Shown: piece after piece, positions 11,198 to 43,292 of the stretch
Layout: each line of letters opens with the position of its first letter
Numbering within the stretch: the first letter of the stretch is position 1
Virus record (IMG/VR): IMGVR_UViG_3300015615_000196
Span: 256,001 to 320,000 of that record
Direction: 5' to 3' (one strand)
Source: a virus
Lineage: Duplodnaviria; Caudoviricetes
Length of the DNA stretch: 64,000 bases
The notes under the pieces: model-generated
Told to the model about the DNA's origin: nothing
What the model saw: only the letters and a program-made list of their open reading frames with translations
Database searches by the model: none
Translations under genes and position numbers: made by a program

Positions 11198-11687
11198 TGA
11201 AGTTTTTAATAAGAGAATAGTAGTCTATAATTTTTTGATTTGATGTCACATTGTCAATACCGTAAATGTCTGCAATTTCTTGCTTCCAAAAAAGGGCCAC
11301 CCCAATTCTTTTCAGGTCGGTGATGAAGTCATCTATCGTTTCGGGGAGAACGGGGAAGAGAAATTTCCTTCCCTGATGGTTCACTTCGTACTCGGAGGCT
11401 TCGAAGGTGATTACCGTGTTCGTTGTTTTGTTTCTGATTTCTTGGTACTGGATCAAGTCCTTGCAAGACCAACCAGTGAACAAAACCACTTTCTCGGCAG
11501 CTTCCCATTGGATCATTCGTTTCTCGAAAGCCTGATCACTTTCCCAAAACCCAAATCTCTTTTCGGGCACACCGCCCAACTTATTTGAGATACGGCTTAC
11601 TTCGAAAGGGAGTTGATACAACTCTTCCTTCGCCTTGCTTGTGTGCTTCACATCAATGCATGGCGATGCTTCGATTATAACGTCCAT
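11169..11687 (-). CDS. Hypothetical protein
   Basis: ORF, TAG stop. Confidence 0.6.
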   Translation of the reverse strand: MDVIIEASPCIDVKHTSKAKEELYQLPFEVSRISNKLGGVPEKRFGFWESDQAFEKRMIQWEAAEKVVLFTGWSCKDLIQYQEIRNKTTNTVITFEASEYEVNHQGRKFLFPVLPETIDDFITDLKRIGVALFWKQEIADIYGIDNVTSNQKIIDYYSLIKNFNGSSSQKWQ

Positions 11688-30485: not shown

Positions 30486-30547
30486 TATACGGCTATTTCC
30501 TTAAAAGGTTATGTCACAGGAAACAAAGTTACTAATTTTGCGTATAA
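30486..30547. promoter_or_regulatory. Back-to-back divergent ECF-like promoters
   Basis: Minus strand AACCTTTTAAGGAAATAGCCGTATA (30486-30510); plus strand AACAAAGTTACTAATTTTGCGTATAA (30522-30547). Confidence 0.75.
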
Positions 30548-30554
30548 TGTCAAT

Positions 30555-30956
30555 ATGAGGGTCACAGACAACTATATAACAGTCCTCAAGGCAAACGAGA
30601 TATTTGTCTTCGGGTCAAATCTTGCTGGCATTCACGGTGCTGGTGCAGCAAAAATGGCACATGAACTTTTTGGCGCAAAATGGGGTATAGGATACGGACT
30701 CGAAGGACAGTCCTTTGCACTCCCAACAAAAGATCGACAGATCGAAACATTGACGCTCACGCAGATCAAACATTTTGTAGATCAGTTTATTAAGTTCGCA
30801 AAGCGTAAACCACAACTTACATTTTTAGTGACCGAAGTCGGTTGCAAACTTGCTGGTTACGAACCACATCAAATCGCTCCACTCTTCAAAGATGCAGTCG
30901 AAGTTGAGAACATTCACCTTCCAGAAAGATTTTGGAATGTTTTGAATTTAGAATAG
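30555..30956 (+). CDS. A1S_2505-family (macrodomain-like) phage protein
   Basis: IFVFGSNLAGIHGAGAA, GQSFALPT, FLVTEVGCKLAG. Confidence 0.75.
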   Translation: MRVTDNYITVLKANEIFVFGSNLAGIHGAGAAKMAHELFGAKWGIGYGLEGQSFALPTKDRQIETLTLTQIKHFVDQFIKFAKRKPQLTFLVTEVGCKLAGYEPHQIAPLFKDAVEVENIHLPERFWNVLNLE

Positions 30957-32946: not shown

Positions 32947-33223
32947 CATCGTCATTACGATGTTCTGTCACATTTTTTGTTGCGTTCTTCCACTCTTAGG
33001 ATTCGTTGTGGGTCTTAATGTCATTGGAAGCTACGCTCACGCCTATGAGAGTGTCATTATTGCTCTCAACCTTATTTCAATCACCTTCGGCTTTTACTAC
33101 ACGTATCTCCATAAGGAGAAAAAGAAGTGTGATCACCAGCATTGTCATGATCGCAGTAAAGTAGCATTCTGGATCGCGACAATTATTTCTCTATCGATAA
33201 TGATTGTTCCACACTTAAATTAA
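32903..33223 (+). CDS. MerC-like metal-binding membrane protein
   Basis: 3 TM helices; CHIFCCVLP in TM1; CDHQHCH loop. Confidence 0.55.
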   Translation: MLKEKTSLKTVTISSIVITMFCHIFCCVLPLLGFVVGLNVIGSYAHAYESVIIALNLISITFGFYYTYLHKEKKKCDHQHCHDRSKVAFWIATIISLSIMIVPHLN

Positions 33224-37235: not shown

Positions 37236-38012
37236 ATGAAAGGTCAACTTACATTTCAGAACTACAAGTCTTACACGAAAGAAGATCAAAAGACTTGGGG
37301 TGCTCTTTTCGAACGTCAGGTGGATAACCTGAAAAAAGACAACAAGGTTGTCGAAGAGTTTTGGGAAGGTGTCAATAAGTTGAAAATCAAAAGAGGTGAA
37401 ATACCCAATTTTGAAAACGTCAACAAGATACTCAAGCCACTGAACAATTTTGAGATCATGGGTGTGACTGGTTTGCTGGATGATCAAATCTTCTTCCAGC
37501 TAATCAAGAATCGCAAGTTCCCGGTGACCACTTGGATTCGCAAACCTCACCAGATCGACTATATTGAAGAACCGGATATGTTTCATGACTTGCTCGGTCA
37601 CGTACCGTTCCTTGCTCATAAATCGTATACGGACTTACTGGTTGAACTTGCCGATGCTGCCTTACTTTCGTTCCAGAGAAACGACAAAGTGTTTCAGGAT
37701 GCGTTTGTGCGCTTTTACTGGTACAGTGTTGAGTTCGGTCTTCTCCTGAACAAAGAAGGAAAGCACCAGATTTACGGAGCAGGGATTCTTTCATCGTTCT
37801 CGGAGACAAACAAAGTGTTTGAAGCAGAGAGTGTGAAGAAGGATTTCAGCTACGACATTTTGAAGGAAGACTTCGATAAGCAGCACCTTCAAAATTTCTA
37901 CGCTGTGCTTTGTGGTCAGGACGGAGGCATTGGCTTTGCAAGTGGAATTGAGCGACTACGGGAATGGGTCGTTTATGTAAACGATCAACAACACGGGAGG
38001 CACAATCCATGA
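37236..38012 (+). CDS. phhA: Phenylalanine 4-monooxygenase (biopterin-dependent aromatic amino acid hydroxylase)
   Basis: YIEEPDMFHDLLGHVPFL (two Fe His), WYSVEFGL (Fe Glu), YGAGILSS. Confidence 0.9.
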   Translation: MKGQLTFQNYKSYTKEDQKTWGALFERQVDNLKKDNKVVEEFWEGVNKLKIKRGEIPNFENVNKILKPLNNFEIMGVTGLLDDQIFFQLIKNRKFPVTTWIRKPHQIDYIEEPDMFHDLLGHVPFLAHKSYTDLLVELADAALLSFQRNDKVFQDAFVRFYWYSVEFGLLLNKEGKHQIYGAGILSSFSETNKVFEAESVKKDFSYDILKEDFDKQHLQNFYAVLCGQDGGIGFASGIERLREWVVYVNDQQHGRHNP

Positions 38013-42260: not shown

Positions 42261-42540
42261 AAGTAGCAGGAATGTGGCGGCTTATGAACAGTCGCATTGC
42301 TTTTCGTGGCATTTCGGACATCCCGAAGTAATGGGTTAATAGTCCTCATGTTCTCCACTGTGGTTATATCACCACATTCCCCCTTACGTTATCCTTGTCC
42401 CTGTTAAGACAGGTGAGCCATTGCTGGCAAGTTCCCTTATCGGTTTGCTACAGTCCTGTGGTGTGCAAGAGCACGTTTCAGGGCGTGGGATGAAAAATTC
42501 GCCCTACAGTGTCAGTGGATTGTCTACCAATCCTCTACCT
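42261..42540 (-). ncRNA. ~280-nt highly structured RNA of unknown class
   Basis: Closing AGGTAG/CTACTT; hairpins GGATTG/CAATCC, AGGGCG/CGCCCT, GTGC/GCAC, GCCA-GCAA-TGGC, CCTGT/ACAGG and TTCGG/CCGAA; long-range GGAATGTGG/CCACATTCC. Confidence 0.6.
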
Positions 42541-42550
42541 ATTTTTCAAG

Positions 42551-42621
42551 TGGATACTGGATGATTCGAACATCCGTTAACCCCCTCAATGGGGCCGTTC
42601 TAACCGCTAAACTAAGTACCC
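42551..42621 (-). tRNA. Atypical tRNA with 6-nt anticodon loop (ATTGAG; possibly degenerate Gln-TTG)
   Basis: GGGTACT/AGTATCC acceptor, GTTT/GAAC D-stem, GCCCC/GGGGT anticodon stem, GGATG-TTCGAAT-CATCC T-arm. Confidence 0.7.
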
Positions 42622-42626
42622 GTTTT

Positions 42627-42795
42627 CGGGAAGGTTCGGAGTTCCACACGAACCTCTCCATACCTAATTCTGAATGTCGTGTGCGCTTCACAGCTACTCC
42701 CCTTGGATTAATGGTTTTCGATGGCCAATGGCTCCCCGCACAACGAGTACAAAACTTCAAACGGTATGGCGCATTCATACTATGCTACCTTTCCC
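42627..42795 (-). ncRNA. tRNA-shaped RNA with ~98-nt insert replacing the anticodon loop
   Basis: GGGAAAGG/CCTTCCC acceptor, GCAT/ATGC D-stem, CCATACC/GGTATGG stem, degenerate T-arm TTCG(T)G-TGGAACT-CCGAA. Confidence 0.65.
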
Positions 42796-42797
42796 TG

Positions 42798-42865
42798 ACA
42801 CAACTTCACGCACTGCGTAACCAATGCATCATGGCCGATTTACGTCAACCACTTCGAAGTTATGT
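42798..42865 (-). ncRNA. 68-nt three-way-junction RNA with complementary loops
   Basis: P1 ACATAACTTCG/TGAAGTTGTGT; P2 GTGGTTGA/TCGGCCAT, loop CGTAAA; P3 TGCATTG/CAGTGCG, loop GTTACG. Confidence 0.7.
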
Positions 42866-42868
42866 TTG

Positions 42869-42980
42869 TGGGAAGGGATGGACTTGAACCACCAACCTCT
42901 CAGCTTTGCGATCTGTAAAGATGCATACCATTGCATTTGATTTCCGCATCACTGAGTTCTCTAACTTGAGATACCTTCCC
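42869..42980 (-). ncRNA. tRNA-shaped RNA with 48-nt anticodon-loop insert (intron-like)
   Basis: GGGAAGG/CCTTCCC acceptor, TCTC/GAGA D-stem, CTCAG/CTGAG anticodon stem, GGTGG-TTCAAGT-CCATC T-arm. Confidence 0.75.
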
Positions 42981-43220: not shown

Positions 43221-43292
43221 CGCGGATACCCGGATTCGAACCGAGGTCAAGGGATTTAGAGTCCCCTGTTCTGACCACTAAACTATATCCAC
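43221..43292 (-). tRNA. Amber suppressor tRNA (anticodon CTA)
   Basis: GTGGATA/TATCCGC acceptor, GTTT/GAAC D-stem, GGGGA-CTCTAAA-TCCCT anticodon arm, CTCGG-TTCGAAT-CCGGG T-arm, G73. Confidence 0.92.

Follow-up and report, generated by a model that had tools for sequence, protein, structure and literature searches.

A predicted non-decoding, tRNA-shaped RNA gene with a conserved structured domain in the tRNA cluster of a giant phage

The locus and its tRNA-like gene

The window analysed here, a 64,000-nt stretch of DNA, belongs to the 362.6-kb genome of an uncultured phage with terminal repeats and 61 tRNA genes. Within a tRNA/ncRNA cluster of this window lies a 169-nt element whose strand is the minus strand, reading from 42795 to 42627; we number it from position 1 (window 42795) to position 169 (window 42627). 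tRNA-like genes flank it at 42869–42980 and 42551–42621, both on the minus strand, and match the tRNA model RF00005 at 46.3 and 50.8 bits. Further upstream, at 43221–43292 on the minus strand, lies a tRNA(CUA) gene. The element shares its strand with the neighbouring modules, at a spacing of 3–5 nt, and the next tRNA-like gene begins at 42621, 5 nt downstream of the element. The initial annotation regarded the element as one of a family of tRNA-shaped RNA genes, and this cluster, like those of related phages, indeed contains several such genes; many modules of the cassette are odd tRNA-like ones. Most of the 61 tRNAs of the phage do not encode CCA; the genome encodes a CCA-type nucleotidyltransferase domain, RtcB and a second RNA ligase.

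Two distinct phages related to this one, L005/L006 (L005 being a 294-kb contig) and L011, have orthologues of the element at the syntenic place (coordinates L005:2400-2564 and L011:3427-3592), with homology confined to the 169 nt. The covariance model R1 scores 154–195 bits for this gene. A search for a second copy elsewhere in the phage genome found none, and a weak R1 match at window 11495–11634 falls within a 172-aa ORF and was taken as chance. The features of the element, with sequences given as RNA, are as follows.

42627–42795, minus strand: whole 169-nt tRNA-like RNA gene, positions 1–169; homology runs from G1 to G169, with unaligned flanks
42788–42795, minus strand: 5′ acceptor strand GGGAAAGG, positions 1–8, invariant in all three homologues; its GGGAA pairs with UUCCC at 42628–42632
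42627–42632, minus strand: 3′ acceptor strand UUCCC and discriminator G, invariant; no CCA encoded
42771–42785, minus strand: D-like arm GCAU-AGUAUGA-AUGC, positions 11–25, with an invariant stem and a loop without GG
42763–42769, minus strand: 5′ strand of the 7-bp stem at the anticodon-stem position, positions 27–33, pairing with 42658–42664; all cells paired
42633–42654, minus strand: T-like arm GGUUCG-UGUGGAACUC-CGAACC, positions 142–163; two stem positions change on both sides
42665–42762, minus strand: 98-nt insert, positions 34–131, made up of P2, P3, a loop resembling a kink-turn, and hairpins Pa and Pb at a three-way junction; the common fold threads all three sequences with standard pairs only
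42737–42746, minus strand: 5′ strand of P3, positions 50–59, pairing with 42677–42685
42731–42736, minus strand: non-bulged strand GGGAGC of the putative kink-turn, positions 60–65; GGAGC is invariant in the three homologues and fits the consensus (PMC4382518)
42686–42694, minus strand: bulged strand GC-UGU-GAAG of the putative kink-turn, positions 102–110; AGC-NNU-GAAG is conserved in the three homologues
42712–42727, minus strand: hairpin Pa, positions 69–84, whose stem has 3 bp and whose loop has 10 nt in the window; two pairs change on both sides
42698–42707, minus strand: hairpin Pb, positions 89–98, with CC/GG in the window and L005 and UA/UA in L011

A conserved fold that replaces the anticodon arm

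The element folds into an acceptor helix, a D-like arm and a T-like arm, while the anticodon arm is replaced by a rod of ~110 nt that consists of the 7-bp stem, P2, P3, a loop with the signature of a kink-turn and a junction of two hairpins. The earlier description of a tRNA-shaped RNA carrying a structured domain in place of the anticodon arm thus holds; in some of its details the shell differs from what was first proposed. An acceptor GGGAAAGG/CCUUCCC had been suggested. Both strands are present, and uninterrupted pairing is limited to GGGAA/UUCCC; the last two C of CCUUCCC either pair with G7–G8, with A6 bulged, or form part of the T stem GGUUCG/CGAACC. The stack of acceptor and T stem can accordingly be drawn as 5 + 6 bp, with one extra pair past a bulged U, or as 7 bp with A6 bulged followed by 4 bp. 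Either register totals 11–12 bp, and the competing pairs are invariant.

The D stem GCAU/AUGC was correctly recognised; it lies on the minus strand, pairs positions 11–14 with 22–25 and is invariant in the relatives, and a single position of its loop varies between G and C (AGUAUSA across the three homologues). Equally, the proposed 7-bp stem CCAUACC/GGUAUGG is present between positions 27–33 and 132–138 and undergoes one compensatory change, from C-G to U-A, in L005; no 7-nt loop follows it. The T loop had been read as TGGAACT. Its actual loop has 10 nt (UGUGGAACUC) and is conserved as UGUGRAACUC in all three homologues, and the 7-nt UGGAACU would form only with U148 bulged and the predicted G149–C157 pair closing the loop. 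Neither G18–G19 in the D loop nor U54-U55-C56 in a 7-nt T loop is present. Since the two loops lack the G18–G19 and U55-C56 elbow contacts, recognition by RNase P or other readers of the elbow is not assured.

Inside the rod, an internal loop of 6 nt by 1 to 3 nt connects the 7-bp stem to P2. Among the insert pairings proposed initially, the helix UCGU-U-GUGCG/CGCAC-ACGA is present as P3 and strongly supported: both sides change in 6 of 9 pairs, and three different Watson–Crick pairs occur in several columns. The other two did not survive comparison with the homologues, which keep the register AGUUUUG/CAGAAUU in place of UUUGAA/UUCAGA and favour two short hairpins in place of UUGG/CCAA. In the relatives, Pa resembles a T arm (GGAG-UUCGAUU-CUCC in L011 and GGAG-UUAGAAU-CUCC in L005).

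All three homologues contain a duplex with a 3-nt bulge followed by G·A and A·G, with the bulged strand GC-NNU-GA-A-G and the non-bulged strand (G/U)-G-GA-GC, a C helix closed by C-G and A·G at 3b·3n. In the register of the window, the non-bulged strand reads 4n, 3n = G, 2n = G and 1n = A, followed by the two G-C pairs of the C helix (Pc), and the bulged strand reads C helix, 3-nt bulge, 1b = G, 2b = A, 3b = A and 4b = G. The C helix of this putative kink-turn has 2 bp and opens directly into the three-way junction; 4b·4n is G·G in the window. The window's non-bulged strand GGGGAGCC is identical to the corresponding strand of H. marismortui Kt-7. The invariant internal loop of the insert, located below the small three-way junction, fits the kink-turn consensus at the level of sequence, and A·G at 3b·3n marks the class that folds in metal ions alone (PMC4382518). 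A gene for an L7Ae-type kink-turn binder was found neither in the phage genome nor in a Bacteroides control genome, and L7Ae was dismissed as a partner on account of its absence from the phage.

One common fold fits the window, L005 and L011. Under this fold, 13 of 48 pairs change on both sides, compared to 5.0 ± 1.8 in 500 shuffles, none of which reaches 13, and to 0–5 in controls with slid partners; the alignment behind these counts was fitted to the structure and holds three distinct homologues only, so that the covariation statistics are weak. Cells are paired to 91% under the common fold and to 33–46% in the controls, and the occurrence of several G-U cells identifies the minus strand as the one that folds. 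Conservation and covariation across the three phages are well above controls, and the fold is maintained by selection. The single-sequence fold has an ordinary minimum free energy (−46.6 kcal/mol, z = −0.40).

Sequence identity is distributed unevenly along the element. It amounts to 94–97% in the 5′ shell and 85–95% in the 3′ shell (85–97% for the shell overall), 81–94% in the kink-turn region with Pc and 31–67% in the insert helices, where pairing is nevertheless kept. The shell, loops included, is thus the most conserved part (94–97% versus 31–67%) and seems to be read for its sequence and not to serve as a mere carrier. Since the orthologues also keep the architecture of the cargo, the earlier picture of a passive scaffold with interchangeable cargo is not borne out.

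The distribution of the gene is patchy. It is missing in at least four syntenic relatives (L002, L007, L008 and L012), which implies that the element is dispensable or often replaced. Exact and degenerate patterns of the 5′ and 3′ shell gave no matches in viral_contigs, metagenome_contigs or genome_contigs. The downstream 167-aa gene, used as a protein anchor both alone and as an alignment, led to one distant 366-kb phage only, in which the RNA cassette is absent at the place of this gene, and returned nothing from genome_contigs. With the helicase as sole query, no match was obtained in viral_contigs, and GenBank faecal phage fragments with a 40–43% identical helicase contain neither tRNAs nor an R1 match. 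A blastn search against the phage collection matched tRNA-Leu and nothing else. By the upstream 67-aa protein, the closest relative is P0017 (83% identity).

Comparison with tRNAs and other structured RNAs

As had been anticipated, tRNA finders miss the element. RF00005, with a gathering cut-off of 29 bits, gives no match on 42627–42795 at E up to 10 or in a genome-wide search at E up to 0.01, and ARAGORN makes no call on the element, even with the intron option and lowered thresholds. In place of a 5-bp anticodon stem with a 7-nt loop, U33 and an anticodon, the 7-bp stem continues into P2 and P3. The element has no anticodon loop and is non-decoding.

A near-identical acceptor in the 42869–42980 neighbour had been taken to indicate a paralogous family. 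This near-identity exists in the window phage but not in L005 and L011, where the neighbour's acceptor is GGGGAGG and that of the element is still GGGAAAGG. The R1 matches to the neighbour and to its L005 orthologue have E-values of 0.55 and 0.036, respectively, and the local alignment score of the element is 22 against the neighbour and 20 against a real tRNA-Ser. The likeness between the two shells is marginal.

The closest known systems are RNA1 and RNA2 of phage T5, annotated in AY543070 as misc_RNA (rna1 30501-30644, rna2 32959-33083) and labelled 'tRNA-like stable RNA with unknown functions'. Like the element, they lie within a phage tRNA cluster, on the tRNA strand and a few bases from real tRNAs, and combine an acceptor, a D arm and a T arm with a much enlarged arm at the anticodon position; they measure 125–144 nt, compared to 169 nt for the element. 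The arm of T5 RNA2 even contains a T-loop-like hairpin (CUCG-UUCGAUU-CGAG), as do the L011 and L005 versions of the element. RF00005 scores T5 RNA1 at 24 bits, against the cut-off of 29, and does not match RNA2. R1 matches neither T5 RNA, so that a sequence relationship is undetectable and the resemblance reflects a shared design and not a shared family. The T loops of the T5 RNAs are canonical (GGUUCAACUCC and GGUUCGAAUCC), whereas the T loop of the element is the 10-nt UGUGRAACUC and its D loop lacks GG, and the kink-turn signature of the element is not seen in the T5 RNAs. By the wording of their record, the T5 RNAs accumulate in vivo, whereas the element is known here from its sequence. 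The 'RNA species I and II' of phage T4, as they appear in the legend of Figure 1 of PMC2330249, provide a looser parallel.

YrlA RNAs (RF02553; Chen et al. 2014, PMC4201824) combine a tRNA-mimicking module with a second, protein-binding module, and some members are substrates of RNase P and CCA addition (PMC4201824). They are linked to RNA repair genes, and the phage of the element encodes RtcB. Their topology is inverted relative to the element: in YrlA, the 5′ and 3′ ends build the Ro-binding stem and enclose the tRNA-like part, whereas in the element they build the acceptor and enclose the extra domain. The sole RF02553 match, at 23.6 bits and E = 0.92, falls on another RNA of L005. With no RF02553 match on the element itself and neither a Ro60/TROVE gene nor a TROVE domain in the phage genome, an identity as Y RNA was rejected.

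The candidate kink-turn shares the 3-nt bulge, G·A, A·G, the C-G closure and A·G at 3b·3n with Kt-7 and with the kink-turns of the SAM-I and T-box riboswitches (PMC4382518, PMC5061560), a likeness based on sequence; it differs from them by its C helix of 2 bp and, in the window, by G·G at 4b·4n.

In its tRNA-like acceptor and T domain, with ends that enclose a large structured domain, the element resembles tmRNA, but it has a D stem and no pseudoknots. Huge phages can encode tmRNAs; here, ARAGORN finds none, the third acceptor pair is G3-C and not G-U, and the frames of the insert shift register between homologues, and a tmRNA identity was rejected. In the 'tRNA scaffold' of Ponchon and Dardel, a foreign structured RNA is reportedly inserted in place of the anticodon stem-loop, and the tRNA-processing enzymes of the cell trim and stabilise it. 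The element differs from this engineered design in being natural and in having a body that is not a functional tRNA. Conservation is higher in this body than in the cargo, so the body probably does not act as a carrier alone.

Alternative explanations and possible roles

It is highly improbable that the element is an intron-bearing or split tRNA, from which an archaeal-type endonuclease with RtcB, or self-splicing, would remove the 98-nt insert to yield a decoding tRNA. The insert occupies the usual site of tRNA introns, RtcB and a second RNA ligase are encoded in the phage, and the 42869–42980 neighbour is scored as a tRNA whose anticodon loop is oversized. Yet the 7-bp stem joins the insert directly and covaries to its last pairs, leaving no 5-bp stem with a 7-nt loop; the would-be anticodon triplet varies (GUU, GUU and GUG) and position 33 is C, not U; and ARAGORN calls no tRNA in any of 432 variants from which the insert was excised in silico. 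A bulge–helix–bulge motif was not found at the insert borders, intron and ribozyme families gave no match on the element at E up to 10, and the insert is far smaller than group I introns. The T and D loops of the shell are not those of a tRNA, the tRNA splicing endonuclease (PF01974) is absent from the phage genome, and RtcB is carried by phages for RNA repair as well (PMC7824862). Conservation through an overlapping small protein gene is extremely improbable: a 79-aa ORF at 42539–42778 (minus strand) and a 108-aa ORF at 42561–42887 (plus strand) are open under code 11, but indels of 1 and 4 nt distinguish the homologues within the element, no gene is called over the element in L005 or L011, and the substitutions follow compensated pairs instead of codon periodicity. 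A cis-acting function as terminator or attenuator, or in processing or stability of the transcript, would account for the run of T directly after the element in L005 and L011. We consider it very unlikely, given that the window lacks this run and continues with the next tRNA-like gene 5 nt later, that the minus strand has no called terminator-like site at the element and that the conserved internal domain far exceeds what a terminator needs.

The element could lack a function of its own, either as a decaying pseudogene derived from a tRNA or as tRNA-like punctuation at which RNase P and RNase Z separate the RNAs of the cassette, as is suggested by the patchy presence among syntenic relatives, the tight spacing of a cassette with many odd tRNA-like modules and the ordinary fold energy. 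Decay as a pseudogene, however, does not fit with 13 compensated pairs and an internal loop that stays invariant, given that the helices have diverged to 31–67% identity. For processing alone, an acceptor/T minihelix is enough, and neither a conserved domain of 98 nt nor invariance of the D- and T-loop sequences is called for. We regard this explanation as unlikely. Improbable, too, is an aminoacyl carrier that acts off the ribosome and is charged by a synthetase ignoring the anticodon, for instance a seryl-tRNA synthetase reading the long arm and G73. The discriminator G, the G-C rich acceptor, the single long arm between D and T arms and the resemblance of the 5′ shell to the D arm of the phage's tRNA-Ser, which supplies the second and third best local matches, would suit such a carrier. 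This resemblance is marginal, however, with a score of 20 compared to 22 for the neighbour and 16–18 for many other tRNAs; the elbow nucleotides used by synthetases and EF-Tu are changed, neither an Asp-type nor any other identity set is present, and no gene for a partner enzyme is linked.

From its sequence, we consider the element to be probably the gene for a stable, non-decoding RNA of ~170 nt with the shape of a tRNA and a member of a cassette. It also seems probable that this group of giant phages keeps such a cassette of tRNA-like RNAs behind an amber-suppressor tRNA. tRNA-processing enzymes would excise the RNA from a polycistronic transcript, with RNase P cutting at G1 and the 3′ side being trimmed after G169; the subsequent addition of CCA would fall to the host enzyme or to the CCA-type nucleotidyltransferase of the phage. 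Because 3b·3n is A·G in all three homologues, the kink-turn would be expected to fold by itself in Mg2+, bending the apical junction back along the rod and giving the RNA a compact shape.

The role that appears most likely, and that we propose tentatively, is that of a tRNA mimic that binds a specific protein outside translation. Its partner could be a host factor that recognises tRNAs, for example a tRNA-targeting defence enzyme that would be titrated, or a protein of the phage, and the conserved loops of the shell together with the kink-turn arm may provide the surfaces for recognition. A rather unlikely variant is a natural tRNA scaffold, in which the host tRNA machinery would mature and stabilise an aptamer composed of kink-turn and three-way junction; such an RNA would act as a decoy for a tRNA-targeting defence enzyme of the host or hijack a tRNA-binding enzyme and leave translation undisturbed. 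In this case, related phages would possess, in the varied tRNA-like modules of their cassettes, an evolving arsenal of RNA decoys.

The tRNA clusters of phages are usually read as codon supply or as spare parts against nucleases. The element represents a well-defined case of an almost ignored class, the non-decoding tRNA look-alikes known since T4 and T5, and offers exact ends, a fold backed by covariation and a kink-turn signature. If the RNA indeed acts as a decoy or cofactor, it would add a new layer to the conflict between phage and host over tRNAs and would give the engineered tRNA scaffold a natural counterpart.

Genome setting of the RNA cassette

The 169-nt tRNA-shaped RNA gene at window 42795-42627 (-) is conserved, folded, encoded on the minus strand and unable to decode. 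The virus record comprises 362,603 bp with direct terminal repeats (the window being its bases 256001-320000), and by ARAGORN we detected 61 tRNA genes for all 20 amino acids together with an amber-suppressor tRNA(CUA). The flagged stretch is read on the minus strand as one of a same-strand run of RNA genes.

RNA cassette and flanking genes (window coordinates)
43292-43221 (-): tRNA(CUA), called by ARAGORN, first in the run
42980-42869 (-): 112-nt gene with a 47-nt "anticodon loop", accepted by the Rfam tRNA model RF00005 at 46.3 bits
42795-42627 (-): flagged element, defined by orthologues and common fold
42621-42551 (-): tRNA-like gene whose anticodon loop has 6 nt (AUUGAG), RF00005 50.8 bits, five bases after the flagged element
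Among the flanking protein genes: RNA ligase, Dda/PIF1-type helicase, pol-beta-type nucleotidyltransferase

The helicase is most closely related to those of a Bacteroides phage and of uncultured phage fragments from the human gut, which makes a gut bacterium, perhaps one of the Bacteroidota, the probable host. A large protein collection contains 15 relatives (44-78% identity) of the 167-aa gene directly downstream of the cassette. Their contigs yielded eight syntenic loci, in which the helicase comes first, then small genes, the RNA cassette and a 164-aa gene.

Elements kept in the syntenic loci (L002 to L012, related phages)
Cassette-opening tRNA(CUA): window 43221-43292 (-); L002:2231-2303, L005:1809-1893, L007:2384-2454, L008:2207-2279, L011:3058-3143, L012:41-112
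Non-coding stretch that separates the final tRNA-like gene from the 167-aa gene: window 42261-42540 (-); L002:3667-3996, L005:3723-3978, L008:3700-3967, L011:3820-3998, L012:928-1140

Since a tRNA with a CUA anticodon heads the cassette in every syntenic relative, we suggest that these phages reassign TAG or read through it. The body of this tRNA is mostly of class I (71-73 nt); those of L005 and L011 have a long variable arm and measure 85-86 nt. A second tRNA(CUA) call lies outside the window within the main tRNA array (phage genome coordinates G000:C1:59159-59272 (-), 114 nt, 19-nt insert at position 36, ARAGORN intron option) and may be another oversized tRNA-like gene. All syntenic relatives keep the non-coding stretch (170-350 nt, conserved at ~70-72%), a much wider distribution than that of the flagged element. 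The gene with the 6-nt loop has sound acceptor, D and T arms, counterparts at L011:3624-3693 and L012:701-772, and 75-84% conservation in most syntenic relatives, with a varying loop (UACUUA in L011). Another gene outside the window specifies an RtcB-type RNA ligase (G000:C1:344092-345063 (+), 76 bits). An unusual phage metabolic gene at window 37236-38012 (+) encodes a 258-aa protein that matches the biopterin-dependent aromatic amino acid hydroxylases (Pfam, E = 4.7e-33), a family weakly matched at the syntenic place in L012.

Orthologues and common fold

By blastn of the cassette against the syntenic loci, we found orthologues of the flagged element in L005 (with an identical copy in L006) and L011, at 72-75% identity over the full length, and different sequences at its place in L002/L003, L007, L008 and L012. 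Homology runs exactly from G1 to G169, and the flanking sequence is unalignable. A run of T directly follows the element in L005:2565-2575 (UUUUUUU) and L011:3593-3600 (UUUUAUU), whereas in the window AAAAC and then the next gene come after it; different phages may thus divide the cassette into transcription units differently. The initial annotation had suggested a paralogous family of tRNA-scaffolded RNAs, which is borne out in part only. The covariance model R1, built from all three sequences, matches these three sources alone, once in each genome and never as a partial "cargo-only" hit, and searches of IMG/VR, JGI metagenome contigs, GTDB genomes and GenBank phages yielded no additional homologues. 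Two sister-phage genes, L002:2628-2743 and L005:2120-2239, are tRNA-like (116-120 nt, RF00005 46-49 bits), and their insert replaces the anticodon arm and holds a complete T-arm-like hairpin (GCGG-UUCGAAC-CCGU; GCCG-UUCGACU-CGGU); L007:2752-2832 resembles an insert-less version. Because the distribution is patchy and sister phages hold different tRNA-like modules at the same place, the flagged element fits an accessory, fast-turnover role.

One secondary structure with standard pairs only fits all three sequences.

Parts of the common fold
Acceptor: 5 bp
D-like arm: 4 bp
Stem in the anticodon-stem position: 7 bp
P2: 7-8 bp
P3: 9-10 bp, one bulge or mismatch
Pc: 2-bp helix
Pa, Pb: two short hairpins
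T-like arm: 6 bp

Pairs were counted on the model-fitted alignment A5, which comprises three sequences only and was fitted to a structure derived from them: standard pairs occupy 91% of cells, compared with 81.5% in 500 shuffles and 33-46% with partner columns slid by 1-3, and both sides change in 13 of the 48 pairs, compared with 5.0 ± 1.8 in shuffles (0/500 reach 13) and 0-5 when slid. P3 contributes six of the 13, several of its columns showing three different Watson-Crick pairs; the remainder fall in the T stem (2), Pa (2), Pb (2) and the 7-bp stem (1). G-U cells fit the minus strand only. Folded as a single sequence, the element reaches -46.6 kcal/mol, no better than shuffles (z = -0.40), so that an argument from one sequence alone would stay at chance level.

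Pairwise identity is 94-97% in the 5' shell, 85-95% in the 3' shell, 81-94% in the internal loop plus Pc, and 31-67% in the insert helices. To judge from this pattern, the shell (loops included) and one internal loop are constrained in sequence, the rod helices in structure only. Pa resembles a T arm in L011 (GGAG-UUCGAUU-CUCC) and L005 (GGAG-UUAGAAU-CUCC); the window's version has drifted away from this shape, its stem being 3 bp and its loop 10 nt long.

All motifs listed in the initial annotation are present on the minus strand, with three corrections. Uninterrupted pairing in the acceptor is confined to GGGAA/UUCCC; the two C that follow can pair with G7-G8 (A6 bulged) or with G142-G143 of the T stem. 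The T hairpin loop is 10 nt, UGUGGAACUC; the 7-nt loop originally described requires a bulged U and an extra G-C pair, predicted by RNAalifold. Within the insert, the homologues support pairings other than UUUGAA/UUCAGA and UUGG/CCAA.

The loop between P3 and Pc reads (G/U)GGAGC on the non-bulged strand and GC-NNU-GAAG opposite in all three homologues. A C-G-closed C helix is followed by a 3-nt bulge, G.A, A.G and then A.G at 3b.3n, an arrangement that looks like a kink-turn. The window's GGGGAGCC is identical to the non-bulged strand of H. marismortui Kt-7. In the putative kink-turn, the C helix has 2 bp only and opens into the Pa/Pb junction. Since we found no L7Ae-family gene in the phage, nor in the Bacteroides control genome, the more likely reading is an architectural kink that would fold by itself, bringing the apical junction back along the rod; A.G at 3b.3n is reported to be the variant that folds most readily in metal ions alone (PMC4382518).

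Alternative identities and precedents

As had been anticipated, the element escapes tRNA finders: ARAGORN leaves it uncalled whether or not introns are allowed, and also at lowered thresholds, and RF00005 does not match it at E up to 10 or in a whole-genome search. A decoding tRNA is rejected, as the anticodon loop is absent, the would-be triplets vary (GUU, GUU, GUG) and follow C instead of U33, and a covarying pair falls within the would-be loop. For an intron-bearing tRNA, none of 432 excision variants (144 per sequence) was called at the ARAGORN 80% threshold, neither a bulge-helix-bulge motif nor a ribozyme or intron family match was found, and the phage lacks a splicing endonuclease, though RtcB is present. 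Against tmRNA stand a G-C third acceptor pair, the missing ARAGORN call and a tag frame that is not conserved; against a protein-coding gene, 1-nt and 4-nt indels between homologues, compensated-pair substitutions, and no gene called there in L005 and L011. YrlA-type Y RNAs also join a tRNA mimic to a second module but have inverted topology and a Ro60 partner (PMC4201824); their model is unmatched here and a Ro60 gene is absent.

The nearest precedent is phage T5, whose rna1 (144 nt) and rna2 (125 nt) are annotated as "tRNA-like stable RNA with unknown functions" (GenBank AY543070), with several more stable RNAs among its tRNA genes. Both are cloverleaf-like with an enlarged arm in the anticodon position, as in the flagged element, and the RNA2 arm carries a UUCGAUU T-loop hairpin. 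RF00005 scores RNA1 under its cut-off and misses RNA2; R1 matches neither, so that the design is common and the family separate. "RNA species I and II" of the T4 tRNA region are a looser parallel (PMC2330249). The flagged element is a new sequence family within an old, little-characterised kind, distinguished by its putative kink-turn/three-way-junction arm and non-canonical elbow.

Proposed maturation and role

The RNA would be co-transcribed with the suppressor tRNA and other modules, cut free at the limits of the conserved stretch by RNase P and 3' trimming, and would then receive CCA. Only a handful of the 61 phage tRNAs have an encoded CCA, and most must therefore acquire it; the phage carries a CCA-type nucleotidyltransferase domain (PolyA_pol/CCA-adding-type head domain, G000:C1:230396-230779 (+), 84 bits, within a 992-aa open frame). 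Sequence constraint on both the shell loops and the putative kink-turn loop leads us to favour a specific protein partner that would read the tRNA-like body and the long arm. Giant phages wage a conflict with their hosts over tRNAs using RNA ligases, RtcB and large tRNA sets (PMC7824862), and our guess, offered tentatively as possible rather than probable, is that the flagged RNA may serve in this conflict as a tRNA mimic: a decoy, sponge or cofactor.
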